DNA of 33,556 bases from Gemmatimonadales bacterium (GTDB taxonomy: Bacteria > Gemmatimonadota > Gemmatimonadetes > Gemmatimonadales > GWC2-71-9). The DNA is taken from positions 1-33,556 of the forward strand of contig DASSTP010000143.1 in NCBI GenBank assembly GCA_035707845.1, in the 5' to 3' direction. The translations under genes were made by a program, and so were the position numbers. Of this stretch, positions 18,264 to 29,999 are shown in pieces. Each line of letters starts with the position of its first letter. Within the stretch, counting starts at the first letter, position 1. The notes beneath the pieces were generated by a model. It ran no database searches and was not told the origin of the DNA. It worked only from the letters and a program-made list of their open reading frames with translations.

Positions 18264-18716
18264 ATGAAGCTCCAATTCTCCGGATCGCCCGAAGTCACCG
18301 CGACGCGCGAGCGCGTGTGGGATGCCCTCCTCGATCCCCACTTCGTGGCCGCGTCCGCGCCCGGGGTTGAGGAGGTGGAAGTGCTCTCGCCCGAGCGCTA
18401 CAACCTCCATCTTGGGCTCGGCATCGCCTTCTTCAAGCTGCACATCATCATGCACGTGCGCATGCATGATCTACAGCCCCAGGAGCGCGCCAGCCTCACA
18501 GCCACCGGCTCGGCGCCAGGCACCGAGGTCGAGGTCCGGTCCCGCATCCACATCGAGCCACTCGCCCCTGAACGCCAGCGGCTGAACTGGGATGCGGAGG
18601 GCGAAGTGCAGGGCGCCCTCGCCGGCCTCGGCGCCCGTCTGCTGGAAGGTGTGGTGCGGTCGTTCACGGAAGACTTCTGGAATGATTTTGCGGAGAGAGT
18701 GGGGCGTGGGGCATGA
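18264..18716 (+). CDS. SRPBCC-superfamily protein (CoxG-like), 150 aa
   Basis: Internal ATG 18264 of ORF 18084..18716. The size and the pattern MKLQFSGSPEVTATRERVWDALLDPHFVAASAPGVEEVEVLSPERY resemble CoxG/polyketide-cyclase-like proteins. The last residues (VGRGA) are encoded by the heptamer repeat. Confidence 0.65.
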   Translation: MKLQFSGSPEVTATRERVWDALLDPHFVAASAPGVEEVEVLSPERYNLHLGLGIAFFKLHIIMHVRMHDLQPQERASLTATGSAPGTEVEVRSRIHIEPLAPERQRLNWDAEGEVQGALAGLGARLLEGVVRSFTEDFWNDFAERVGRGA

Positions 18717-18809
18717 GGCGTGGGGCGTGGGGCATGAGTCACGAGTCTCGCGTAGCCCCATGCCCCATGCCCCATGCCTCATGCCCCATGCCCTATGCCC
18801 GGTGTTTTT
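18699..18809 (+). terminator. Heptamer-built hairpin (RTGGGGC x6 / CCCATGC x6) followed by a T5 run; probable + strand terminator
   Basis: Pairing 18699-18733 with 18755-18789 gives 35 bp: 29 Watson-Crick, 5 G:U (18727:18761, 18720:18768, 18709:18779, 18706:18782, 18699:18789) and 1 A:C. TTTTT lies at 18805-18809, 15 nt past the best register, and closer in slipped registers. It overlaps the SRPBCC stop (18714-18716). Confidence 0.5.
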
Positions 18810-18847: not shown

Positions 18848-20551
18848 ATGGCCATGCCGATGCGTTCCTTGGTGAGAAGTGAAGTATGGCGCGTGCTGGT
18901 CGTGCCACTGCTGCTGTCGGGCTGTGGGCATCGGCCCTACGATGTGGTGATCCACGGCGGCAGCGTTTACGACGGCACCGGTTCGCCAGGCGTCGTGGCC
19001 GACGTCGCCATCAAGGGCGACAGCATCGTGATGGTCGGGGCGGTTCCTCGAGGCAGTGGCGACCGCGAAATCGATGCGACCGGCATGGCCGTCGCCCCTG
19101 GGTTCATCAACATGCTGAGCTGGGCAAATGTTTCCCTCATCCAGGACGGCCGCTCGCAGGGGGGCATCCGCCAGGGCGTGACGCTCGAGGTAATGGGTGA
19201 AGGCAGTTCCATGGGTCCGCTCACCGACTCGATGCGCGCCGAGATGATTGCCCGGCAGGAGGACATCAAGTACGAAGTGCCATGGACCACGCTGGGGCAG
19301 TACCTCGAGCACATGGAGCAGCGCGGCATCTCCACCAACATCGCCTCGTTCATCGGCGCGGGTACCGTGCGCGAGCACGAGGTGGGCTACGCCAACCGTC
19401 CGGCCACACCTGAGGAGCTGGCCCGGATGCAGGACCTCGTTCGCGAGGCAATGCGCGAAGGAGCGCTGGGTGTCGGCTCGTCGCTCATCTACGCACCCGA
19501 CAACTACGCGCCCACCAGCGAGCTGATTGCGCTCGCCAGGGCGGCCGGCGAATACCACGGCATGTACATCTCCCACATGCGGGACGAAGGCGCCCACGTG
19601 CTGGACGCGCTCGATGAACTGATCCAGATCGCCAGCGAGGCGCACGTGCCCGCCGAGATCTACCATCTCAAGGCGTCGGGCCGTGCCAACTGGGCCAAGC
19701 TCGATTCGGTGATTGCCAAGGTGGATTCCGCCCGGCGGGCCGGGCTCCAGATCACGGCCGACATGTACACCTATCCCGCCAGCTCCACCGGGCTCGATGC
19801 CACCATGCCGACCTGGGTGCAGGAAGGCGGCCACAAGGCGTGGGTCGAGCGGCTCAGGGATCCGGCCATCCGGGCCCGGCTCGCGAGGGAAATGCGAGGC
19901 GGCGCCGATGGCTATGACAATTCCTTTGCCAACGCCGGCGGACCCGACGGCATCCTGCTGGTGAGCTTCCGCCAGGACTCGCTGCGCTACCTGATCGGCA
20001 AGACCCTGGGCGACGTGGCCCGCATGCGCGGCACCCCGCCGGAAGAGACGGCGATGGATCTCGTGGTGCAGGATGACAGCCGGGTGGGATGTGTCTTCTT
20101 CACCATGTCGGAAGACAACGTGAAGAAGAAGATTGCGCTCCCGTGGGTCAGCTTCGGGTCAGACGCGGGCAGCTACGCCACCGAGGGCGTCTTCCTCAAG
20201 ACCGGCACCCATCCCCGCGCCTACGGAAACGTGGCACGCCTGCTGGGAAAATATGTCCGGGAAGAGCACGTCATTCCGCTGGAGGAGGCAATCCGGAAAC
20301 TCACGTCGCTTCCGGCCACCAACCTCAAGCTGCAACGGCGCGGCCAGCTGGCGCCGGGCTACTTTGCCGACGTCGTCATCTTCGACCCGAAGACGATCAT
20401 CGACCACGCCACCTTCGAGAAGCCGCACCAGTACGCCACCGGCGTGCGCGACGTGTTCGTGAATGGGGTGCAGGTGCTCAAGGACGGCGAGCACACGGGG
20501 GCAAAGCCGGGGAGGTTTGTGCGAGGGCCGGGCGTGAGGCGTGGGGCGTGA
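18848..20551 (+). CDS. N-acyl-D-amino-acid deacylase (D-aminoacylase) family amidohydrolase, lipoprotein, 567 aa
   Basis: Internal ATG 18848 of ORF 18713..20551; the upstream part of that ORF only translates the hairpin. The lipobox is LLLSGC. Family motifs: YDVVIHGGSVYDGTG, IDATGMAVAPGFIN, ISHMRDEG, IYHLKASG, VSFGSDAGS, FADVVIFDP. Confidence 0.85.
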   Translation: MAMPMRSLVRSEVWRVLVVPLLLSGCGHRPYDVVIHGGSVYDGTGSPGVVADVAIKGDSIVMVGAVPRGSGDREIDATGMAVAPGFINMLSWANVSLIQDGRSQGGIRQGVTLEVMGEGSSMGPLTDSMRAEMIARQEDIKYEVPWTTLGQYLEHMEQRGISTNIASFIGAGTVREHEVGYANRPATPEELARMQDLVREAMREGALGVGSSLIYAPDNYAPTSELIALARAAGEYHGMYISHMRDEGAHVLDALDELIQIASEAHVPAEIYHLKASGRANWAKLDSVIAKVDSARRAGLQITADMYTYPASSTGLDATMPTWVQEGGHKAWVERLRDPAIRARLAREMRGGADGYDNSFANAGGPDGILLVSFRQDSLRYLIGKTLGDVARMRGTPPEETAMDLVVQDDSRVGCVFFTMSEDNVKKKIALPWVSFGSDAGSYATEGVFLKTGTHPRAYGNVARLLGKYVREEHVIPLEEAIRKLTSLPATNLKLQRRGQLAPGYFADVVIFDPKTIIDHATFEKPHQYATGVRDVFVNGVQVLKDGEHTGAKPGRFVRGPGVRRGA

Positions 20552-20603
20552 GGCTTGGGGCGTGAGGGCCACGGATCCTCCCATGCCCCATGCCTCACGC
20601 CCT
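20543..20603. terminator. Hairpin from GCGTGRG heptamers facing CCATGCC/TCACGCC, overlapping both stop codons of convergent genes
   Basis: Pairing 20543-20568 with 20578-20603 includes an 11-bp perfect core (20544-20554 with 20592-20602). The rest has three G:T and two or three mismatches. The D-aminoacylase TGA is at 20549-20551 and the argR stop at 20595-20597. Confidence 0.45.
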
Positions 20604-21047
20604 TCTAACGAAGCGCCCGAGCAGCCTCAGCAATTTTCGCTGCTCACCGCGACCGTGCGTCGCAAGGAAGATCGTGTCGTCGCCCGCGATGGTGCCGACG
20701 ATTTCTCCCCACGCCAGCCGATCGAGCGCGGCGCCGACCCGGCTGGCCTCGCCGGGCGGCGTGTGCAGCACCACCAGGGCATCACCGGCCGGCTCCGCCG
20801 TGAGCACGCCTTCGGCAATCCGCCGCTCATCCGGATCATCTGCGTTGATGGCACCCGTTTCCGGCCGGCGGTACGCGCCACCCACTTTCACCAGCCCCAG
20901 CGCCGCAATGTCCCGGCTCACGCTCGACTGGGTGACGTCCCACCCTTCCGATGCCAGCGCCTCGGCCACGTCTTCCTGGGTCTTGAGGGCCCGGGTCTCG
21001 ATCATCTCCAGGATCTTGAGCTGCCGCTTCCGGCGATCGTTCGTCAT
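20595..21047 (-). CDS. argR: Arginine repressor ArgR (150 aa)
   Basis: Internal ATG 21047 of ORF 20595..21083. The winged-helix N-domain is RQLKILEMIETRALKTQEDVAEALASEGWDVTQSSVSRDIAALGLVK. The C-terminal oligomerisation/arginine-binding domain has GTIAGDDTIF. It is the last gene of the arg cluster. Confidence 0.9.
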   Translation of the reverse strand: MTNDRRKRQLKILEMIETRALKTQEDVAEALASEGWDVTQSSVSRDIAALGLVKVGGAYRRPETGAINADDPDERRIAEGVLTAEPAGDALVVLHTPPGEASRVGAALDRLAWGEIVGTIAGDDTIFLATHGRGEQRKLLRLLGRFVRRA

Positions 21048-21051
21048 GGCA

Positions 21052-22419
21052 TCATCTCCCTGCCAGGCGCCGCATGGCAACATCGAACCGGCGTCGCTCA
21101 GCGCGCTGCCAGCGTTCGACCTGGCGCACCCGCTGGCGCGCCTCGGTCAGCCCCACGTTGCCCACGCCGCCGGTCGAGCGGCGACGCACCAGCAGTTGGC
21201 CGGCGGTTGGCGGGTCGAACTGTTCGCCGCCCTTGATCGCGGCCGCCACCTCGCGATAGGCGCGCCGGAAGGGGACGCCACTCTCCACCCGGCGCATCAC
21301 CTCATCGGTGGCAAGCGCGCCGCCGGCAAGCGCCGCCTGGCAGCGTTCACGGTCCACCGTCAGCGTCGGAACGGCGGTCGCCATCATCGCGAGCATCTCG
21401 CGGGTCCGGTCCAGCCCGCGGAAGAGCGGCTCCTTGAGGAGCTGGAAGTCCCGATGATAGCCGCTCGCCAGCTTCCCCTTGAGCAGGAGCAGGGAGACCA
21501 GGTCCCCGTCCAGCGCCGCCGCGCGCGCGCGCGTCAGCTCGAAGAGATCGGGATTGCGCTTGTGCGGCATGATGCTCGACCCCGTGGCCAGTTCGGCCGG
21601 CAGGATGAGATAGCCGAACTCCTCCGCGCTGTAGAGAATGGCATCGACCGACAGCCGGGAGAGTTCGTGCCCCAGCTGGCCACACCAGGCGAGCACCGCG
21701 GCCTCCAGCTTGCCCCGGCCGTTCTGCACTGTCGCCACATTGCGGTCGAGGCCGCCGAAGCCGAGGGCGCGGGCGGTTTCTTCACGCTTGAGTGGCAGGG
21801 GCACGCCGTATCCAGCCGCGCTTCCGAGCGGGCAGCGGTCCACCCGCGCCCATATGGACGGAAGCCCCTCCAATGTGTCGAGCACGCCCTCGGCCAACGC
21901 CCCGGCCCACAGTGCCACCGACGACGGCATGGCTCGGCGCTGGTGCGTGTAACCGGGCCAGAGGACGGTGCGATGGCGGCCGCCAAACTGCAGCAGCGCC
22001 GCCGCGAGCGCCGTAGCCGCGGCATGCAGGTCGAGCAGGGCATCCTTGAGATACAGCCGCAGGTCCACGGCCACCTGGTCATTGCGCGAGCGTCCGGCAT
22101 GCAGCCGCTCACCTGCGTCCCTGCTCCGTCGCGTGAGCCAGCTCTCCACCGCCGTATGGGCGTCCTCCTGGTCACGCGCGACGGTGAGGCGCCCTGCGTT
22201 CACCTCTCGGAGTGCGGCCCGCAGCCCGTGGCGCAGGGAGCGGTACTCCGCATCCCGCAACAGGCGTGATGCGCGTAACCCTTCGACGTGGCCGAGGCTG
22301 CCGAGCACGTCCCAGCGCAGCAGGCGGGCATCCCACACCGGATCATCGCCGATGGTGTAGGCCAGCATCTGCGCGTCAGGTGCCGCGCCGGGCGACCAGA
22401 GCGTGCGGGGCTCCTTCAT
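21052..22419 (-). CDS. argH: Argininosuccinate lyase (455 aa)
   Basis: Internal ATG 22419 of ORF 21052..22530; this ATG overlaps the argE stop as ATGA. Fumarate-lyase family signature GSSIMPHKRNPD. Other ArgH blocks: WPGYTHQRRAMP, RSRNDQVAVD. Confidence 0.95.
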   Translation of the reverse strand: MKEPRTLWSPGAAPDAQMLAYTIGDDPVWDARLLRWDVLGSLGHVEGLRASRLLRDAEYRSLRHGLRAALREVNAGRLTVARDQEDAHTAVESWLTRRSRDAGERLHAGRSRNDQVAVDLRLYLKDALLDLHAAATALAAALLQFGGRHRTVLWPGYTHQRRAMPSSVALWAGALAEGVLDTLEGLPSIWARVDRCPLGSAAGYGVPLPLKREETARALGFGGLDRNVATVQNGRGKLEAAVLAWCGQLGHELSRLSVDAILYSAEEFGYLILPAELATGSSIMPHKRNPDLFELTRARAAALDGDLVSLLLLKGKLASGYHRDFQLLKEPLFRGLDRTREMLAMMATAVPTLTVDRERCQAALAGGALATDEVMRRVESGVPFRRAYREVAAAIKGGEQFDPPTAGQLLVRRRSTGGVGNVGLTEARQRVRQVERWQRAERRRFDVAMRRLAGR

Positions 22420-23492
22420 GCGAGGTATCGCTCCGCCACCTGGGCATAGAGGTCCCGGGCCGCACTCACTTCGTGGAGGTCCACGTATTCGTCCGGCGTG
22501 TGGGAGCGCCGGCTGGTGCCGGGTCCGCACTTGACCGCATCGCGGTCGCGCAGGAAGACCCAGTCGGAACAGGTGGGGCTCCCATAGGAGCGCGACGCGC
22601 GACGCGTGGCCTGCATGATGGGCAGGAGCCGCGACGTGCCGGGCGTCTCGCAGGGCACCAGCCTGTCGGAGGTCACGACCACTTCGGACGCGAGCGACTC
22701 CCGGAGCCGCTGGGCGATCTGGTCATGCGGCCACGCCGGTGTGCTGCGAATATCGAGCACTGCACGCGCCGACGGCGGCGTCACGTTCCGGCTCACGCCT
22801 GCCTCGAGCATCGTGGGCGTGACCGTCGGCGCGCCGAGAACGGGATGGGGCCGGTCGGGAAAGAGGCTTGCGAGCTTGAGCAGGTCACCCGCCAGGAGAA
22901 GGGCGGCGTTGGTGAACTCGCCATCGGTAGATGCGTACCCTGCGTGACGCTGGTCCCCACTGGCGACGAGATCCACCATCATGAGTCCCCGCTGCGCTAC
23001 GGCGAGATCGAGGTTGGTGGGCTCACCGATGATGGCCGCGTCGATGGCACCCGAGCGCCGCACGGCCTCGGGCATGGTGGTGAGGCGCGTTTCCTCACCA
23101 TAGCCCAGGATCACCAGCACCCGGCCGCGCGCCAGTCGCCGGTCGCGAGCGAGATCCCAGGCTGCTGCCAGCATCGCCGCCACGGGCCCCTTGGCATCGC
23201 CGGCACCGCGCCCGTAGAGGCGGCCTTCCTCGATGGAGGCACGGAAGGGATCGCGCGTCCATCCTTCACCGGCCGGCACCGTGTCGAGGTGCGAGACCAG
23301 CGCCAGCGTCGGCCCGGGTCCCTCGCCACGCACCTCGATGCGCACGCCCGCGTCGTCGCGCGTGGCATCCAGCCCCCACTCGCGGGCGCGCGCTTCCACG
23401 AGACGGCCCACCGCCTCCTCGCTGCCGCTCACCGAGGCGGTGGAGACCAGCTCGCGCAGCAGCTCAATCTCGGGAGGCCAGGTCAACGCCAA
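22416..23492 (-). CDS. argE: M20-family deacylase (ArgE/DapE-like; acetyl- or succinyl-citrulline/ornithine deacylase)
   Basis: ORF 22416..23492 (TTG start; the first 29 nt overlap the argB 3' end). M20 motifs: LVSHLDTVP, GRGAGDAKG, GYGEET. Its position lies between argB and argH. Confidence 0.8.
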   Translation of the reverse strand: MALTWPPEIELLRELVSTASVSGSEEAVGRLVEARAREWGLDATRDDAGVRIEVRGEGPGPTLALVSHLDTVPAGEGWTRDPFRASIEEGRLYGRGAGDAKGPVAAMLAAAWDLARDRRLARGRVLVILGYGEETRLTTMPEAVRRSGAIDAAIIGEPTNLDLAVAQRGLMMVDLVASGDQRHAGYASTDGEFTNAALLLAGDLLKLASLFPDRPHPVLGAPTVTPTMLEAGVSRNVTPPSARAVLDIRSTPAWPHDQIAQRLRESLASEVVVTSDRLVPCETPGTSRLLPIMQATRRASRSYGSPTCSDWVFLRDRDAVKCGPGTSRRSHTPDEYVDLHEVSAARDLYAQVAERYLA

Positions 23493-24399
23493 GGTAGGTT
23501 GCCTTCTCCTTCCGCCCGACGATCATCGTGCCGCATCCGGCACCGGTGAACACCTCAGTCAAGAGCGCATCAGGCTGGCGGCCATCCACGATGTGGGTGC
23601 GCTCGACGCCGCCGGTAGCCGCGCGGATGCAGGCTTCCACCTTCGGCTTCATCCCGCCCGAGAGCGCGCCGCTCTGCATCAGTTCGGTCAGGTCGTCGGG
23701 ATCGGCAAAGGCGACCAGCGTCGAGGGATCGTTCCGGTCCCGGAGCACCCCCGGCGCACCGGTGAGAAAGATGAGCTTCTGGGCGCGCAGTGCCGTGGCG
23801 ATGGCTTCGGCCACCGTGTCGGCGTTGACGTTGTAGACGTTACCCTCGTCGTCACCGGCGAGGCTCGCCACCACCGGCACGAACCGCGCATCCAGCAGCG
23901 TCGTGAGCACCCTGGCATCCACCCGGTCCACGTCGCCCACGTGCCCGAAGTCCACCCGTTGCTGCCTGCCGTCGTCGCCGACCAGGTCCACGGGGAGACG
24001 GCGGTGCGCCGTGAGCAGGTCCGCGTCCACGCCGGTGATGCCGACCGCCTGCACCCGATGCTCGCGGAGCGCAGCAATGAGATCCGTACTCAGCAGGCCG
24101 GCATACACCATCTTGGCCACTTCGAGTGCCGCATCATCCGTGACCCGCCGCCCGCCGACCATCACCGGCTCCTGGCCCATGCGGCGCGACAGCGCCGAGG
24201 CCTGCGGGCCGCCGCCATGCACCACCACCAGGCGGATGCTGAGCGACTGCAGCAACGCCAGTTGCGTGGCCACCTGGTCCAGCACCTCGGCGTCCTGCAG
24301 CACTTCGCCGCCGAGCTTGACGACAAACACCTGGTCCCGGTACGCGCGCACATAGCGCAGTGCGCCCTTGAGGCCGGTGAGGGATGGGTCGAGGGACAA
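23464..24399 (-). CDS. argB: N-acyl-L-glutamate kinase (311 aa)
   Basis: ORF 23464..24399 (TTG start). Amino-acid-kinase family motifs: VVKLGGEVL, VVVHGGGPQ, NVNADTVA. It has the kinase domain only, with no fused GNAT/NAGS domain. Confidence 0.9.
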   Translation of the reverse strand: MSLDPSLTGLKGALRYVRAYRDQVFVVKLGGEVLQDAEVLDQVATQLALLQSLSIRLVVVHGGGPQASALSRRMGQEPVMVGGRRVTDDAALEVAKMVYAGLLSTDLIAALREHRVQAVGITGVDADLLTAHRRLPVDLVGDDGRQQRVDFGHVGDVDRVDARVLTTLLDARFVPVVASLAGDDEGNVYNVNADTVAEAIATALRAQKLIFLTGAPGVLRDRNDPSTLVAFADPDDLTELMQSGALSGGMKPKVEACIRAATGGVERTHIVDGRQPDALLTEVFTGAGCGTMIVGRKEKATYLGVDLASRD

Positions 24400-24414: not shown

Positions 24415-24475
24415 GGGCATGGGGCATGGGGCGTGGGGCGTGGGGTCTCAAGCCCCATGCCTCATGCCTCATGCC
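24415..24475. repeat. Heptamer hairpin / G-tract array: GGG CAT GGGG CAT GGGG CGT GGGG CGT GGGG - loop - GCCCCAT GCCTCAT GCCTCAT GCC
   Basis: Read directly. It fills most of the 69-nt argF'-argB gap (24400-24468). Pairing 24423-24445 with 24453-24475 includes four G:T positions. Confidence 0.9.
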
Positions 24476-25476
24476 ATCAGTTCCAGCAACAACGCCCGCT
24501 GCACATGCAACCGGTTTTCCGCCTCGTCCACCACGACCGAGTGGGGGCCGTCGAGCACCGCGTCATCGATCTCCACGTTGCGGCGGACCGGGAGACAGTG
24601 CATCACGATGCCGGCGCCGGCACGGGTCGCCTGCTGGCGCTCGGCGGTCATCCGCCAGTGCCGGTACGGTTCACGCAGGACGCCCTCGGCCTCCGGCCGC
24701 CCGAACGCGTTGAGGGCGCCCCAGGACTTCACGTAGACGGCGTCCGCGTCTGCCAGCGCGACATCGAGGTCTTCCGATTCCGTCACGGAACCGCCGGCAT
24801 CCGCGGCGCAACGTGCGATTGTCGCCATGTCGTCCGGATCGAGCGCATAGCCAGGTGGCCGGGCAATCACCACGTCCATGCCCATCATCGCGCCGGCGAC
24901 GGCGGCGCTCGCGGGCACCGCAGTCGGCAGTGGCTTGGGATGCCAGGCCCAGGCGAGCACGAATTTCTTCCGACGAGTGTCACCCAGCTTTTCACGGAGC
25001 GTCATCGCGTCGGCCAGGCCCTGGCAGGGATGCCGCCGTGTGCTCTCCATGTTGATGACCGGCTTGGACGAGTAGCGGGCAAAGTCCCGGATGATCCGGT
25101 CCTCACGCGCCACGTCCCATGTCCCGCCCTTGGGAAAGGCACGCACGGCGAGCGCGTCGGCATAGCGCGAGAGGACCCGCGCCGCCTCGATGACGTGCTC
25201 CACCGAGGTCCCGTCCATCACCACGCCGTGCTCGGTCTCGAGCGTCCAGCTTCCCTTGCCGGGCTCGAGGATGAGGGCGTGTCCGCCGTGCAGGAACATC
25301 CCGGTCTCGAAGCTCGACCGGGTGCGGAGGCTCGGGTCCATGAAGATGGCCGCCAGCACCTTGCGCTCGAGGCCGCCGGTGACCTCTCCCTGCTTGATGC
25401 GCGCGGCCAGCGCCAGCAATTGCTCGACGCCGTCCCGCCCCCAGTCTTCCATGGCGAGAAAATCGCGGCCGCTCAC
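24469..25476 (-). CDS. argF': N-acyl-L-ornithine carbamoyltransferase (AOTCase/SOTCase type, not a canonical OTCase), 335 aa
   Basis: ORF 24469..25476 (GTG start overlapping the argD stop as GTGA). Carbamoyl-phosphate motifs are SLRTRSSFE and HPCQGLAD. The OTCase D-x-x-x-S-M-G ornithine loop is replaced by VYVKSWGAL. MHCLPVRRN, WTLETEHGVVMDG and ENRLHVQ match the acyl-ornithine transcarbamylases of Xanthomonas and Bacteroides as I remember them. Confidence 0.8.
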   Translation of the reverse strand: MSGRDFLAMEDWGRDGVEQLLALAARIKQGEVTGGLERKVLAAIFMDPSLRTRSSFETGMFLHGGHALILEPGKGSWTLETEHGVVMDGTSVEHVIEAARVLSRYADALAVRAFPKGGTWDVAREDRIIRDFARYSSKPVINMESTRRHPCQGLADAMTLREKLGDTRRKKFVLAWAWHPKPLPTAVPASAAVAGAMMGMDVVIARPPGYALDPDDMATIARCAADAGGSVTESEDLDVALADADAVYVKSWGALNAFGRPEAEGVLREPYRHWRMTAERQQATRAGAGIVMHCLPVRRNVEIDDAVLDGPHSVVVDEAENRLHVQRALLLELMA

Positions 25477-26621
25477 GCAATCACCTCCACCAGCGCCGCG
25501 ATGAGCCTGTCGGCCTCGGCCACCGAGAACGAAAGCGGCGGCATGAGCCGCAGGACGCTGGGATCGGTGGAGGTGCCGGTGAGGATACGCCGCTCGAAGA
25601 GCGCGCGCTGCACCTCCACGGCCGGCCGGTCGAGACGCAGGCCCAGCAGGAGCCCTCTGCCCTGCACTGCCTGGACGCCGGCGCGCCAGGCACCATCACG
25701 AAGGCGCTGGCCCACTACCCGCACATTCTGGAGCAGCGATTCATCGTCCATGACCTGCAGCGTGGCGAGCGCGGCAGCGCACGGCACCGGTCCCCCGCCG
25801 AAGGTGCTGCCGAGATCGCCGACTTTCACCTGCGCGGCGATGGCATCGCTGGCGACGGTGGCGCTGATCGGCAGGCCCGACCCCAGTCCCTTGGCCATGG
25901 TGATCAGGTCGGGAACGACGCCGCAGGCTTCTGCCGCGGTGAAGCGGCCGCTGCGGCCCACCCCGCACTGGATCTCATCGAAGATCAGCATGGCGCCATG
26001 CGCCGCCGTGACGCGACGGGTGGCCTGCAGGAACTCGAGCGAGCAGTCGCGCGCGCCCATCATCCCCTGCACCGGCTCCACGATCAGCGCGGCCACGGTA
26101 TCATCAATCAGCCGCTCCAGCGCGGCGACGTCGTTGAACGGCACCTTGGCCGAGAGCGGCATCCCGGCGCGCCGCGCGCCTGCTTCGTACTTCTCGCCGT
26201 CGGTAACCGAAAGACAGGCCACCGTGCGGCCGTGCCAGCCGCCCGAGACGGAGACGATCCGCTGGCGCCCCGTCACCTTCCGCGCCAGCATCATGGCATT
26301 CTCGTTGGCTTCGGCGCCCGAATTGGCAAAGAAGACGTGCGAGAGCGGCGCCGGCATCCGCCGGACCAGCTCCACGGCCAGGCGCTCGCGATTGGGATGC
26401 GGCAGGACGGTGGAGTAGAAGAGGAGCGCCGCCGCCTGCTCGCTGATGGCACGCACCACGGCCGGGTGGCTGTGCCCGGTGGCCGCCACGGCGTGGCCGC
26501 CGTAGGCATCGAGCCAGCGGTTGCCGTCGTCATCCACGATCCACGATCCGCGCCCCGAGACCGGCTTCACCGGCATCTGCGCATAGACCGGCAGCAGCGC
26601 ATCAGCAGTGCGGTTCAGCAT
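25473..26621 (-). CDS. argD: N-acyl-ornithine aminotransferase, class III PLP enzyme (382 aa)
   Basis: Internal ATG 26621 of ORF 25473..26999; upstream of it the frame overlaps argC. Motifs: FANSGAEANE, IFDEIQCGVGRSG, and the PLP-lysine region LITMAKGLGSG. Confidence 0.9.
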   Translation of the reverse strand: MLNRTADALLPVYAQMPVKPVSGRGSWIVDDDGNRWLDAYGGHAVAATGHSHPAVVRAISEQAAALLFYSTVLPHPNRERLAVELVRRMPAPLSHVFFANSGAEANENAMMLARKVTGRQRIVSVSGGWHGRTVACLSVTDGEKYEAGARRAGMPLSAKVPFNDVAALERLIDDTVAALIVEPVQGMMGARDCSLEFLQATRRVTAAHGAMLIFDEIQCGVGRSGRFTAAEACGVVPDLITMAKGLGSGLPISATVASDAIAAQVKVGDLGSTFGGGPVPCAAALATLQVMDDESLLQNVRVVGQRLRDGAWRAGVQAVQGRGLLLGLRLDRPAVEVQRALFERRILTGTSTDPSVLRLMPPLSFSVAEADRLIAALVEVIA

Positions 26622-27664
26622 GGATGGATTCCTACCGCCTCGAGTCCCGCCGTCTCGTCGAGTCCCAGCGCGATGTTCATGGCCTGGATCGCCTGGCCGC
26701 CGGCACCCTTGACCAGGTTGTCCTCCGCCACGATGACCTGCAGCTCGCGGCCGTCCTCGGTCATCGCCGCATGGATGAAGGCGTAGTTGGTGCCCACCGC
26801 CTGGGTCAGGTCGGGCGCGTGATCCATGATGCGGACGAAGGGACGCCCGGCGTAGGCATTGCGATAGAGCGCCGCGGCCCCATTCGCGAGCGCCGCTTCC
26901 GGCTCGGAGAGCCGCACGTGCATCGTGAGATAGATCCCCCGCACGAACGGCCCGCCATGCACCATCAGCCGGGCGTGGGCCTCTTCCCGTCCGGTCCATG
27001 CGCGCCAGCTGGCCAGCACCTCGGCCTCATGGCGGTGGCCCAGCACCGAGTACGCGAACACGTTGTTGGCGCGCGCGGGATGATGCGTGGTGGGACGCGG
27101 ATGCACGCCTGCGCCGCTGGAGCCGGTGATGGCAAAGAGCGTGGGCTCGCAGGTCATGCCCGCCTTGGCGATGGGCCAGAGCGCCAGCTGCGCCGCGGTG
27201 GCAAAGCAGCCCGGCGCCGCGATCGCGGTGGCGCCCTTGAGGCGCTTGCCCACCACGTCAGCGAGTCCGTAGGCAAACCGGTGCACATAGTCCGGCGACG
27301 GATGCGCGCCATAGAACTGCTCGTAGAGCCGGGGCGACTGGATCCGGAAATCGGCGGCGAGATCCACGATCAGCCCGGGGCCGGCGGCAAAGATCTCGCC
27401 GATCATCCTGGACGACTCGCCATGCTCCAGCGCCAGGAACAGCACGTCCCGTCCCGCCGCCGCTTCGCCCGGCGTGAGCCCGGCAAAGCGCGCATCTGTA
27501 AGCGGCGCGAGGCCCGGATGCACCTCGGCAATCGGCTTCCCCGCCTGGCTTCGGCTGGTGGCGATCACCTCGCTCACGTGCGGATGCTGCAGCAGGAGGC
27601 GCAGCAGCTCACCACCGGCATAGCCGGCCGCGCCGACCACGGCCACCCGAAGTCCCTCGGTCAT
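26615..27664 (-). CDS. argC: N-acyl-gamma-glutamyl-phosphate reductase (349 aa)
   Basis: Internal ATG 27664 of ORF 26615..28258, overlapping the stop of gene X as ATGA. It has the NAD motif VAVVGAAGYAGGELLRLL and the catalytic-Cys region IAAPGCFATA. Confidence 0.9.
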   Translation of the reverse strand: MTEGLRVAVVGAAGYAGGELLRLLLQHPHVSEVIATSRSQAGKPIAEVHPGLAPLTDARFAGLTPGEAAAGRDVLFLALEHGESSRMIGEIFAAGPGLIVDLAADFRIQSPRLYEQFYGAHPSPDYVHRFAYGLADVVGKRLKGATAIAAPGCFATAAQLALWPIAKAGMTCEPTLFAITGSSGAGVHPRPTTHHPARANNVFAYSVLGHRHEAEVLASWRAWTGREEAHARLMVHGGPFVRGIYLTMHVRLSEPEAALANGAAALYRNAYAGRPFVRIMDHAPDLTQAVGTNYAFIHAAMTEDGRELQVIVAEDNLVKGAGGQAIQAMNIALGLDETAGLEAVGIHPC

Positions 27665-28755
27665 GCGCCGGCGCCCACTGCGGCCGGCTCGCGCGCGGCC
27701 ATCCACGCGTCCAGGCTCCCCCGCACCGCGGCCAGCAGCCCGTCCGCGTCGCGCCGCGCATTGTGGGCCGGCAGGCCCAGCGCGGCACGGATGTAACTCC
27801 GGCCCACATCGTTGTCGGTCGCGGGTCCCGTGATGACGGTGACCGGCAGGCCGAACTGCGATCGCATGAGTTCCACCGCGCCCCAGCACGCCACCGGATC
27901 GGGCGCGGCCATGACCCACGCCGCGCCCGCACCGGCGAGCTCCGGATCGGCAAGGATATCCTGCACCCCGTATTCGCCCAGGATGCCGTCGCCCAGTTCG
28001 GCGACGATCAGGTCGGGCCGGGAGGCGGCAAGCCGGTTGAACAGGCCCTTGGCGGTGGCGACGGTGATGCCCGGATGGGTGCTGGCAATCCCGACGTCGT
28101 TGAACGTGAGCGCCGCCGTGGCGCCCGCATCCTGCATCGAGAGCGCGTCGCGCATGAGCGAGACGCCGGTGAGCTTGGCGGCGCCCACCTTGAGCCCGCT
28201 GCGCGCCAGCCCGCGCACCAGCTCGGTGGCGGCCACTGTCTTGCCCGCATTCATGCACGTCCCCGCGACGTACACCACCGGCATCCTGCTTTCCAGCCGG
28301 TCGGCCGGTGGCACGGCGTGATCGCGGATGTGCGCCGGCCGGCCGATGCGATCACCCAGCGCCGGGAAAGTGAGCACGGCACCCAGCACCTCGGCGTCGA
28401 ACGGCGGACCGATATCGGGATTCTCCGAGGTGCAGTGCCCCAGGATGCCGCCCAGGTTGAGCACCTGGATCACGTCACCCACCGCAATGTGCCTCGGTAC
28501 CTCACCCGCATAGCCGCGGAGCGCGCGCCGCGCGCCCAGCACGCCGGCCAGCACGTCACCCGCGCGCAGGGACACCATGCGTCCGGCCAGGTCCTCCACC
28601 GTGTTGTAGCTCGACTTGTCGGTGAGGATGCGGACGGCCAGCACGTAGCCCTCCTGCGCCACGATCTCGTCGCCCACGATCACCTCGGGCGTGAGCTCCG
28701 CGTTCCGCGTGCTGGAGGCAATGCGGTCCAGCCGCACCCGCGTCGTTACGACCAT
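27661..28755 (-). CDS. Uncharacterised 364-aa protein: N-terminal ~150-aa beta-rich domain + P-loop-like domain (GTCMNAGKT), embedded in the arg operon
   Basis: ORF 27661..28755 (ATG). It overlaps argG by 10 nt and argC by 4 nt, and its GC3 bias matches its neighbours. The Walker-A-like VYVAGTCMNAGKTVAATELV is at codons 28237-28263. Later blocks are AAKLTGVS, VAELGDGILGEYG and VMAAPDP. It matches no arg enzyme I know. Confidence 0.8.
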   Translation of the reverse strand: MVVTTRVRLDRIASSTRNAELTPEVIVGDEIVAQEGYVLAVRILTDKSSYNTVEDLAGRMVSLRAGDVLAGVLGARRALRGYAGEVPRHIAVGDVIQVLNLGGILGHCTSENPDIGPPFDAEVLGAVLTFPALGDRIGRPAHIRDHAVPPADRLESRMPVVYVAGTCMNAGKTVAATELVRGLARSGLKVGAAKLTGVSLMRDALSMQDAGATAALTFNDVGIASTHPGITVATAKGLFNRLAASRPDLIVAELGDGILGEYGVQDILADPELAGAGAAWVMAAPDPVACWGAVELMRSQFGLPVTVITGPATDNDVGRSYIRAALGLPAHNARRDADGLLAAVRGSLDAWMAAREPAAVGAGA

Positions 28756-29963
28756 GATTCGCCTCCTGCAGCGTGCTCCGCTGCCCGTACCGCAAGCAGC
28801 GATGGAATGGCGGCCACCCGCGCAAAGTCGCGGGCTTCCTCACCGGTCCAGAGCCGGTTCTCCTCGCCATAGGTGGCGACGGCCGGATCCATCATCGAGA
28901 ACGGACTCCGCGCGCCCACCACCTGGAAGCGCCCGGGCCAGAGCCGCACGCGCGTCTCGCCAGTCACCCGCTGCTGCGAACTGCTGATCATCGCCTCGAT
29001 GTCCCGCAACGCCGGATCGAAATAGTGCCCTTCATGCAGGCGGTCGCCGTAGAAGCGGCCCAGTTGATCCTTCCAGAATGTCTGCCAGCGGGTGAGCACC
29101 AGCTTCTCGAGCTCGCGATGCGCACCGATGAGCATGAGCGCGGACCCCGCCTCGAAACCGATGCGCCCCTTGATGCCGAGCGCCGTTTCGCCCACGTGGA
29201 TGGCGCGGCCAATTCCATAGGATTCGGCGATCTCGCCCAGGCGATCCACCAGGTCGGCGCCGGTGAGCGCGGCGCCGCCGAGCGAGACCGGCGTGCCCGT
29301 CTCCCATCCGATCACGAGCTCCGCTGGCGCCGGCGCGTCAGCCGGCGGCTCGATCAGCTCGGCGGGCGGGCCGGCCCAGGTGTCGTGGGTCCAGCCACCG
29401 CCCCAGGTGGTGCCCCAGAGGCCGCGATTGATGGAATAGGCCGACGCCTTGGCGGGAACCGGAAGATTGCGGGCCTGGAGATAGGCGATCGACTGGTCAC
29501 GCGTCACGCCCTTCTCGCGGATGGGCGTGATGATGCCGAGCTCGGGCGCCAGCACCCGCAGGGCGATATCGAAGCGGATCTGGTCATTGCCCGCGCCGGT
29601 GGATCCGTGCGCCACCGCCGCCGCGCCGATCTGGCGCGCGACGTCAATGACCGAGATGGCCTGCTGGGTGCGCTCGGCGGCGACCGAAAGCGGATAGACC
29701 TCGCCCCGCAGCACGTTGCCCTGGATCAGGAAGCGCACGAAGCGGTCGAATACCGCAGCGCGGGCGTCCACCTCATGATGCTCCGCGGCGCCGACGGCCA
29801 TGGCCTGGCGGCGGATGGCCTCGCGCTCAGCGGCCGACGAGCCGCCGGTGTTGACGAAGACGGTGTGGACGTCGTGGCCCGCGTCGCGGAGGACGGGAAC
29901 GCAGTAGGAGGTATCGAGCCCGCCCGAGAAGGCCAGGGCGACGGTGGGACGCTTGGTGTGCAT
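28746..29963 (-). CDS. argG: Argininosuccinate synthase (405 aa)
   Basis: Internal ATG 29963 of ORF 28746..29999. Motifs: the ATP pyrophosphatase motif ALAFSGGLDTS, plus AHGSTGAGNDQIRF and GRIGFEAG. Confidence 0.95.
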   Translation of the reverse strand: MHTKRPTVALAFSGGLDTSYCVPVLRDAGHDVHTVFVNTGGSSAAEREAIRRQAMAVGAAEHHEVDARAAVFDRFVRFLIQGNVLRGEVYPLSVAAERTQQAISVIDVARQIGAAAVAHGSTGAGNDQIRFDIALRVLAPELGIITPIREKGVTRDQSIAYLQARNLPVPAKASAYSINRGLWGTTWGGGWTHDTWAGPPAELIEPPADAPAPAELVIGWETGTPVSLGGAALTGADLVDRLGEIAESYGIGRAIHVGETALGIKGRIGFEAGSALMLIGAHRELEKLVLTRWQTFWKDQLGRFYGDRLHEGHYFDPALRDIEAMISSSQQRVTGETRVRLWPGRFQVVGARSPFSMMDPAVATYGEENRLWTGEEARDFARVAAIPSLLAVRAAEHAAGGESWS

Positions 29964-29979
29964 AATGCATAAATATGCA
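29959..29979. promoter_or_regulatory. Candidate ARG-box operator: overlapping palindromes TGCATAATGCA (29959-29969) and TGCATAAATATGCA (29966-29979)
   Basis: This is the only strongly AT-rich patch in the region. The arms TGCATA/TATGCA are perfect around AA, and TGCAT/ATGCA are perfect around A. It overlaps the argG start codon (29961-29963), and an argR gene closes the same operon. TGCAT-containing ARG boxes are known in other lineages. Confidence 0.55.
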
Positions 29980-29999
29980 GAACGGCCGCCTGGCGTCAA
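29970..29999 (-). promoter_or_regulatory. Possible sigma70-like promoter of the arg operon (TTGACG - 18 nt - TATTTA), 6 nt before the argG ATG
   Basis: The minus strand reads TTGACG (29999-29994), an 18-nt spacer, TATTTA (29975-29970), TGCATT, then ATG (29963-29961). Caveat: the TTGACG lies inside the 13-mer GGCGCTTGACGCC, which also occurs at 13412-13424 where no promoter is expected. Confidence 0.3.

Follow-up and report, generated by a model that had tools for sequence, protein, structure and literature searches.

How does arginine biosynthesis start if the arginine operon of a bacterium covers all steps from N-acylglutamate on, together with the repressor ArgR, and contains no recognisable gene for the acylation of glutamate itself? 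This question is raised by a stretch of 33,556 nucleotides from a metagenome-assembled genome (MAG) of a Gemmatimonadales bacterium (GenBank assembly GCA_035707845.1, contig DASSTP010000143.1, positions 1 to 33,556 of the forward strand), which is referred to below as the 33.5-kb window. According to NCBIfam, the minus-strand operon of this window has the order argG-X-argC-argD-argF'-argB-M20 deacylase-argH-argR, where X is an open reading frame (ORF) of 364 amino acids. We propose that X is the missing first arginine enzyme, predicted to convert L-glutamate to N-succinyl-L-glutamate, most simply at the expense of succinyl-coenzyme A (succinyl-CoA), and estimate the probability of this reading at about 0.7. 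The proposal is based on several observations taken together: the operon has only this gap, X is translationally coupled with the other genes, resides in a conserved genomic context, is accompanied by a transcarbamylase of the succinyl type, is fused to ArgB in one lineage, shows a conservation pattern that looks catalytic, and the same function has been predicted in a preprint for proteins of the same description.

The gap in the operon and the gene proposed to fill it

NCBIfam profiles detected no glutamate N-acyltransferase gene in the operon, and no GNAT, ArgA or ArgJ gene was found elsewhere in the window. Glutamate N-acylation is, therefore, the only arginine step without a gene in the operon, as stated in the preliminary description of this DNA, which was made from the letters only and where X was also said to resemble none of the ArgA-J enzymes. 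The latter agrees with the searches of Pfam and NCBIfam, in which X matched no Arg enzyme family and contained no GNAT, amino-acid kinase (AAK) plus GNAT or ArgJ (PF01960) domains at E<=1. The boundaries of X were reproduced exactly. Its start lies within the stop region of argG (ATGGTCGTAA), giving a 10-nt overlap at 28746-28755, while the overlap with argC is 4 nt long (ATGA, 27661-27664).

27661-28755, minus strand: X, candidate N-succinyl-L-glutamate synthase; ATG to TGA ORF, 364 amino acids
28762-28767, minus strand: AGGAGG, Shine-Dalgarno sequence of X, 6 nt ahead of its start codon and still inside argG (3' end)

X is a genuine gene, as shown by its homologous clusters, a G+C content at third codon positions (GC3) of 0.88 and an AlphaFold model with a predicted local distance difference test score (pLDDT) of 96. 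The identical record at NCBI is hypothetical protein VFL88_06520 of a Gemmatimonadales MAG, and the homologues form more than 3,000 clusters at 90% identity and 1,459 clusters at 50% identity.

Genomic context was inspected for 89 bacterial chromosomal loci with X homologues, the named ones originating from five phyla. Arg genes adjoin X in all of them (89/89), and no gene for GNAT, ArgA or ArgJ was found in the operon at any of these loci. The association with arg operons, on which the preliminary description relied, thus holds for the bacterial chromosomal loci inspected, and paralogues outside such operons were seen on plasmids and on archaeal and eukaryote-like contigs. As far as the contigs extend, the order argG-X-argC is kept in 80 of 80 fetched Gemmatimonadales loci, and 33 of these 80 have the full array argG-X-argC-argD-argF'-argB-argE-argH-argR. 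The same argG-X-argC order with 4-nt gene overlaps was registered in MAGs named Myxococcota, Elusimicrobiota and Thermoanaerobaculia, and the X-argC pair was found in a Planctomycetales MAG. Even homologues with only 28-29% identity to X are encoded in argG-X-argF and carA-carB-argG-argF-X-argC-argB-(AstE/AspA-ArgH)-argD clusters. One arg operon with X but devoid of M20 ArgE includes a single gene for 735 amino acids (locus L090, 10869-13076) in which argininosuccinate lyase is joined to an AstE/AspA (succinylglutamate desuccinylase/aspartoacylase) domain; we regard its product as a candidate for an ArgH-fused N-succinylcitrulline desuccinylase.

Four contigs from four samples (L081, 7860-9881, and L082-L084) carry a single ORF in which X precedes an amino-acid kinase domain of the ArgB type; in L081 this ORF lies outside an arg operon and is divergent from an arginase-family gene. 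The fusion looks real but rare, as it makes up one 90% cluster. Apparent X-ArgC fusions (P0240, P0438) were discounted as frameshift artefacts: the contigs concerned are of long-read style and show merging of other adjacent genes as well, and because the two genes normally overlap by ATGA, a single indel is sufficient to join them. Merged or broken calls of argR with argG, X with argC and argF with argB, as well as fragmented argC, are seen at L086 (6309-13676) and L104 (8301-12253), and contigs of this kind bring false "fusion" proteins into protein databases.

The role suggested for X is not original. In the GapMind preprint of Price et al. (2026; bioRxiv 10.1101/2024.10.14.618325) the protein ACG33_RS14135 (A0A127FCT3) and its homologues were predicted, from evidence of similar kinds, to be an alternative N-succinylglutamate synthase, and the enzyme is marked there as predicted. 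According to this source, Steroidobacter denitrificans has no ArgA-like protein, its arg cluster includes the hypothetical ACG33_RS14135, and the homologues are hypothetical proteins that are virtually always encoded in arg operons and never occur alongside ArgA homologues (bioRxiv 10.1101/2024.10.14.618325). The predicted structure of ACG33_RS14135 has a weak Foldseek match to DgcN (PDB 7XRJ) with a root mean square deviation (rmsd) of 5.6 Å, and position 92 is Ala, Pro, Ser or Val in 90% of 70 neighbouring ArgF' proteins and Gln in two of them (bioRxiv 10.1101/2024.10.14.618325). X very probably belongs to this family, since every descriptor compared fits it, including the rare Gln variant. 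Both lack a family assignment and both occur in arg operons with argB, argC, argD, argF', argG, argH and argR; the rmsd to 7XRJ is 5.6 Å in one case and 5.0 Å in the other; neighbouring ArgF' proteins are devoid of Glu92, with Gln being rare in both sets; and the predicted function is the same. The difference is that Steroidobacter has no ArgE, whereas the operon of X includes an M20 deacylase. No Steroidobacter-named protein was present among the named matches of X homologues or in the cluster look-up. Regarding its role as N-succinylglutamate synthase, X is a Gemmatimonadales member of an already predicted kind, so that the non-orthologous synthase proposed in the preliminary description is well supported by context and computational means, though not a new idea. 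What goes beyond the preprint is the novel N-domain, the BioD-type catalytic residues, the ATP-dependent alternative, the X-ArgB fusion and the paralogues that are not linked to arg genes.

Fold of X and its relation to DUF1611 and BioD

No Pfam or NCBIfam family was found above the cut-off for X, and the same is true for 33 diverse members of its family. The only matches of X are short, sub-threshold and located around the P-loop (DUF1611_C, MobB, AAA_26, CbiA, bioD, mobB and cobQ). The AlphaFold2 model (mean pLDDT 96) consists of two domains, with the following features.

28300-28755, minus strand: all-beta N-domain, residues 1-152; pLDDT 96 when modelled alone; S14, E54, R76 and P87 are invariant in arg-type members
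27664-28293, minus strand: BioD-like (SIMIBI) P-loop C-domain, residues 155-364, assigned by Foldseek, a profile search against PDB and hhalign against BioD
28237-28263, minus strand: Walker A motif GTCMNAGKT, G165-T173, with the BioD-type spacing GTxxxxGKT
28174-28176, minus strand: K194, invariant, aligned with BioD K37 (the lysine that contacts gamma-phosphate and substrate)
28147-28149, minus strand: D203, near-invariant, aligned with the BioD Mg2+ ligand D54
27997-27999, minus strand: E253 in ELGDG, invariant, aligned with BioD E115 (EGAGG)

The Walker A-like motif, therefore, occupies the place ascribed to it in the preliminary description, and the other motifs listed there (AAKLTGVS, VAELGDGILGEYG and VMAAPDP) are all present in X. 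The first ~150 residues, described as beta-rich, fold in the model into strands plus one helix of six residues. Foldseek found no fold match for this N-domain in PDB (best E 0.27, template modelling (TM) score 0.30), and PDB structures were aligned only with the C-domain. Here the matches are about equal across the SIMIBI class, comprising SRP54/FtsY, BioD, HypB, MeaB, 2OBN and 7XRJ with E from 4e-6 to 1e-4. In the profile search of PDB dethiobiotin synthetases rank first for the X family, and hhalign of the family profile with E. coli BioD gave a probability of 70% and E 4e-5 for residues 155-256 against BioD 5-124; the numbering of the BioD sequence compared agrees with the literature. In this alignment K172 and T173 of GTCMNAGKT correspond to K15 and T16 of BioD (GTDTEVGKT).

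Conservation separates the residues of X into two sets. K172/T173, K194, D203, E253, R76 and D220 stay unchanged or almost unchanged even if the most distant paralogues are included (D203 and D220 are each replaced by Glu in a few members), while the invariance of S14, E54, P87 and Y262 is confined to members of the arginine-operon type together with their archaeal and eukaryote-like relatives. The invariant polar residues in both domains look catalytic, as far as this can be judged from sequence. Thus, X represents an undescribed and unnamed two-domain family, separate from DUF1611, the BioD-like P-loop domain being common to both. Since there are paralogues outside arginine operons, the fold of the family is a general scaffold and the arg type is one specialised branch of it.

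The preliminary description compared the C-terminal pattern of X with DUF1611-type proteins, one of which, DgcN, is reported to be a D-glutamate N-acetyltransferase. The activity is stated in the title of PDB 7XRJ, which together with secondary citations describes DgcN as acetyl-CoA:D-glutamate N-acetyltransferase. The assignment of X to this type does not hold. PF07755 (DUF1611_C) gives only 19.5 bits against a cut-off of 25 and covers 40 residues (155-194, profile positions 9-48 of 201). In the family, 8 of 33 members match it at E<0.01, none of them above the cut-off in the copy of Pfam used, and a precomputed match to PF07755.18 exists for two members. PF17396 (DUF1611_N) was not matched in Pfam searches by X or by the 33 family members tested, and the N-domain of X is all-beta, whereas that of DUF1611 proteins is Rossmann-like. 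X was, therefore, rejected as a DUF1611 member. In structure comparisons the DUF1611 protein 2OBN ranks 18th and DgcN (7XRJ) 27th, both with TM scores of 0.38-0.42 and rmsd of 5.0-5.5 Å (for 7XRJ, aligned with the C-domain only, TM is 0.38/0.41 and rmsd 5.0 Å), while SRP/FtsY, BioD, HypB and MeaB are equal or better. The similarity between X and DgcN appears to be generic P-loop similarity. What they have in common is the size of ~340-360 amino acids, the two-domain composition, the BioD-like C-domain with Walker A of GTxxxxGK type and, by analogy, N-acylation of the alpha-amine of glutamate, which for X is proposed. The differences concern chemistry as well: DgcN acts on D-glutamate, transfers acetyl and is catabolic, whereas X presumably acts on L-glutamate, uses succinyl and is biosynthetic.

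As compared with BioD, X preserves the Walker A spacing and the equivalents of K15, T16, K37, D54 and E115. It differs by very low scores with the corresponding models (17 bits with TIGR00347 against a cut-off of 83, and 12 with cobQ against 310), by the additional N-domain of 150 residues and by the absence of biotin or cobalamin context, and its use of ATP is putative.

Acyl donor, acyl group and other readings

In the mechanism that we consider, the all-beta N-domain would bind the amino-acid substrate, glutamate, by means of S14, E54, P87 and R76, while the P-loop C-domain with K172/T173, K194, D203, D220 and E253 would bind a phosphate-bearing co-substrate and perform the chemistry. By analogy with DgcN, the donor would most simply be succinyl-CoA, its phosphates being gripped by the P-loop. 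N-succinyl-L-glutamate formed by N-acylation of L-glutamate would then pass through ArgB, ArgC, ArgD, succinyl-type ArgF', the M20 deacylase, ArgG and ArgH, whose genes share one translationally coupled operon with X.

The same C-domain allows another donor. X may instead be an ATP-dependent succinate:L-glutamate ligase that forms an acyl phosphate (succinyl phosphate) on its P-loop, as BioD and CobQ/CbiA do with their substrates, transfers the acyl group to the alpha-amine of glutamate and needs no acyl-CoA. We regard this as a serious alternative because the likeness to DgcN is no more specific than the likeness to BioD and because the BioD set of residues is kept throughout the superfamily. 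Apart from the GTxxxxGKT spacing, the complete BioD set for Mg-ATP binding and phosphoryl transfer was aligned in X by hhalign, these residues are invariant even in distant paralogues not linked to arg genes, dethiobiotin synthetases are the top sequence-profile matches in PDB, and clusters of paralogues contain many ATP-grasp enzymes, which are ATP-dependent ligases. On the other hand, DgcN, the sole characterised remote relative, is reported to use acetyl-CoA (as the title of 7XRJ says), and known N-acylglutamate synthases all take acyl-CoA or transfer the acyl group from acetylornithine. Lys, Asp and Glu of the P-loop domain could equally hold the phosphates of CoA or serve as a general base or oxyanion stabiliser, and the alignment with BioD spans only ~100 residues at moderate probability. 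Altogether an ATP ligase seems possible but rather doubtful. Equally tentative is its wider consequence, that X founds a new enzyme class, ATP-dependent succinate:L-glutamate ligase with a substrate-binding beta-domain of a kind not seen before, its paralogues beside carbamoyltransferases and ATP-grasp ligases in Bacillaceae plasmid clusters and beside AstE/AspA deacylases in archaea forming a broader family of ATP-dependent N-acyl-amino-acid synthetases.

The nature of the acyl group can be approached from the neighbours of X.

28746-29999, minus strand: argG, argininosuccinate synthase (TIGR00032 278.8 bits, NF001770 284.5 bits); translation probably begins downstream of the listed TTG
26615-27664, minus strand: argC (TIGR01850, 332 bits)
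25473-26621, minus strand: argD, N-acylornithine aminotransferase (NF002874, 353 bits), with the start MLNRTADALL
24469-25476, minus strand: argF', N-acylornithine carbamoyltransferase, succinyl-type (NF003384, 423 bits); codon of Val92 at 25201-25203
23464-24399, minus strand: argB, N-acylglutamate kinase (TIGR00761, 226 bits)
22416-23492, minus strand: M20 deacylase of the ArgE/DapE family (TIGR01910 128 bits, TIGR01892 122 bits, both below cut-off), candidate N-succinylcitrulline desuccinylase
21052-22530, minus strand: argH, argininosuccinate lyase (TIGR00838, 286 bits); the ORF as listed reaches too far at its 5' end
20595-21083, minus strand: argR, arginine repressor (TIGR01529, 106 bits), the last gene of the cluster

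Aside from the genes, intergenic inverted repeats built of tandem heptamers, (GGGGCRT)n facing (AYGCCCC)n, are present in the window at 24415-24475, 20540-20600 and 18700-18800, one of these elements lying within the operon, in the argF'-argB gap. Their hairpins are very stable (-44, -46 and -90 kcal/mol; z from -5 to -10), CATGGGGCATG with no more than one mismatch occurs 14 times against 1.9 expected, and the repeats give rise to spurious "MPHASCPMPY" ORFs. They look like elements of the repetitive extragenic palindromic (REP) type.

ArgF' of the window is covered to 96% by the structures of Xanthomonas N-acetylornithine transcarbamylase (AOTCase) and has Val at position 92, which is why its best match in PDB is 3L06, the E92V mutant of AOTCase. 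Replacement of Glu92 by Ala, Pro, Ser or Val switches the Xanthomonas enzyme to N-succinylornithine (Shi et al. 2007, as cited in bioRxiv 10.1101/2024.10.14.618325). In 69 operon ArgF' proteins encoded beside X homologues this position is occupied by Val (63), Ala (2), Pro (2), Ile (1) or Gln (1, Myxococcota, L100, 12029-13084), and never by Glu, which bears out the suggestion of the preliminary description that the transcarbamylase is succinyl-type. The absence of Glu92 in operon ArgF' indicates that the arginine intermediates are most likely succinylated, and the AstE/AspA-ArgH fusion points the same way. The possibility that X produces N-acetylglutamate or another N-acyl-glutamate rather than N-succinylglutamate is, in our estimate, improbable. 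It agrees with the name of the NCBIfam model matched by ArgF' (NF003384, N-acetylornithine carbamoyltransferase), with DgcN being an acetyltransferase and with Gln92 in one neighbouring ArgF'. Against it stand Val92 in this operon, the residues V/A/P/I found at this position in 68 of the 69 ArgF' proteins from operons, the switch to succinylornithine in E92V, A, P and S mutants cited above together with the best PDB match being the E92V one, and the AstE/AspA-type domain joined to ArgH in one operon.

The least likely reading, that X is an accessory NTPase which serves the M20 deacylase as a G3E-like metallochaperone, acts in assembly or as a scaffold, or regulates ArgB, can draw on HypB and MeaB having the best target-normalised TM scores (0.55-0.61, Foldseek), on a weak CobW/HypB/UreG Pfam match in one archaeal homologue and on the preliminary description, which named a regulator or scaffold as an alternative, but X with its five lysines in total has no guanine motif NKxD/TKxD and no match to PF02492, occurs also in an operon without M20 deacylase (L090) and, as its Steroidobacter counterpart, in an organism without ArgE (bioRxiv 10.1101/2024.10.14.618325), possesses K194 and a second domain with invariant Ser, Glu and Arg that look catalytic, and would leave the pathway without its first enzyme; X and ArgA homologues are, besides, mutually exclusive according to the preprint. 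The metallochaperone variant was rejected for the lack of guanine motifs and the existence of X operons without M20 enzyme.

Paralogues, known synthases and consequences

A tblastn search against plasmids revealed X paralogues outside arginine operons. On Rhodobacterales plasmids (Paracoccus, Sulfitobacter; L094 5018-8525, L097 4088-7612, L099 4066-7471) the X-like gene stands between a gene for an alpha/beta-hydrolase or a hypothetical protein and that of an ATP-binding cassette (ABC) transporter; an S8 peptidase and an extracytoplasmic function (ECF) sigma factor are encoded near this trio. These X-like genes are annotated as "DUF1611 domain-containing protein" or "dethiobiotin synthase", which looks like mis-annotation: PF07755 is sub-threshold, and hhalign with the X profile gave a probability of 99.9% over both domains. 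PDB searches with the plasmid genes annotated as DUF1611 did not reach 2OBN or 7XRJ, and a motif scan of all fetched loci detected no true DUF1611 sequence. In Bacillaceae, X-like genes of Priestia megaterium (L095, 5962-7023) and Bacillus paranthracis (L098, 4866-5894) belong to putative natural-product clusters on plasmids (L095 2793-11481 and L098 1-7062), where they lie beside genes for a carbamoyltransferase, ATP-grasp ligases and thiamine pyrophosphate (TPP)-dependent enzymes. The first cluster also encodes an M20 peptidase, a luciferase-like monooxygenase (LLM) oxidoreductase and a phosphoenolpyruvate (PEP)-mutase-family protein, and the second one a TauD dioxygenase. X-like proteins are, therefore, accompanied by a transcarbamylase in settings other than arginine synthesis as well.

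The archaeal homologue P0217 (31% identity; L087/L088, 6984-9923) is encoded between a gene for an AstE/AspA-family deacylase and a convergent gene of RimK-type ATP-grasp protein, which suggests a different N-acyl-amino-acid metabolism; the locus lies among ribosomal and Spt4 genes. Homologues P0213 and P0209 with 31-32% identity come from eukaryote-like contigs (L089 8001-9047, L092/L093 8001-9086) with wide gene spacing and no arg neighbours. One of these contigs is 3.4 Mb long and carries LysM, ankyrin and lytic polysaccharide monooxygenase (LPMO) genes, and the neighbours in the others are PP2C, RNase III and MRP-S33. An X-like ORF was also found by tblastn in an unannotated phage record from human faeces (MT835675.1, 34990-35739; 30% identity over residues 24-273). 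In a plasmid of Microvirga ossetica (L096, 5911-7674) a "transposase" of 587 amino acids consists of an X-like protein and a Mutator-family transposase domain, probably due to insertion or annotation merge.

These paralogues, found on Rhodobacterales and Bacillaceae plasmids and on archaeal and eukaryote-like contigs, are among the points that weigh against the synthase reading of X, because they imply that the fold alone does not specify glutamate succinylation. Besides, support for the role is computational for every member of the family, the succinyl assignment depends on a single residue of ArgF', and the absence of argA and argJ covers 33.5 kb of this MAG. The analogy with DgcN is weak, as 7XRJ with its rank of 27 and TM of 0.38-0.41 concerns the C-domain only and does not exceed SRP GTPases, BioD, HypB and MeaB, and DUF1611_N, being Rossmann-like, has no relation to the N-domain of X. 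Finally, X and ACG33_RS14135 families were equated by matching descriptions.

The established enzyme that is functionally closest to N-succinylglutamate synthase as proposed for X is ArgA2 of Bacteroidetes (BT3761, Q8A1A5). It catalyses the reaction suggested for X, is encoded in an arg operon with succinyl-type ArgF' and fills the same gap, which arises where ArgA and ArgJ are absent. However, ArgA2 is a small protein with the GNAT fold and its role has fitness data behind it, whereas X has no similarity to GNAT and its role is predicted. ArgA (AAK plus GNAT), ArgJ and the bifunctional ArgA/B of Xanthomonadales all perform the first committed step of the arginine pathway, as proposed for X, but these classical N-acetylglutamate synthases show no kinship with it in sequence or fold, and the acyl group used by X is probably succinyl, not acetyl. 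In the rare X-ArgB fusion a kinase and the presumed synthase are combined as in ArgA and in N-acetylglutamate synthase/kinase (NAGS/K), with the domain order reversed.

If the role predicted for X is true, it would add one more unrelated fold for N-acylglutamate synthesis to the GNAT-based enzymes and ArgJ, and would provide a function for an unnamed family of more than 1,400 clusters at 50% identity that has no Pfam or NCBIfam model and an N-domain without a match among solved structures. Of greatest interest is the nature of the acyl donor, either succinyl-CoA or ATP with succinate; should the ligase be true, the first step of arginine synthesis would be independent of CoA in at least five bacterial phyla. 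In either case the last gap in arginine biosynthesis would be closed in Gemmatimonadota, Thermoanaerobaculia, Planctomycetota, Myxococcota, Elusimicrobiota and Steroidobacter-like Proteobacteria, large and mostly uncultured lineages that are otherwise wrongly scored as auxotrophic for arginine when metabolism is predicted from genomes.

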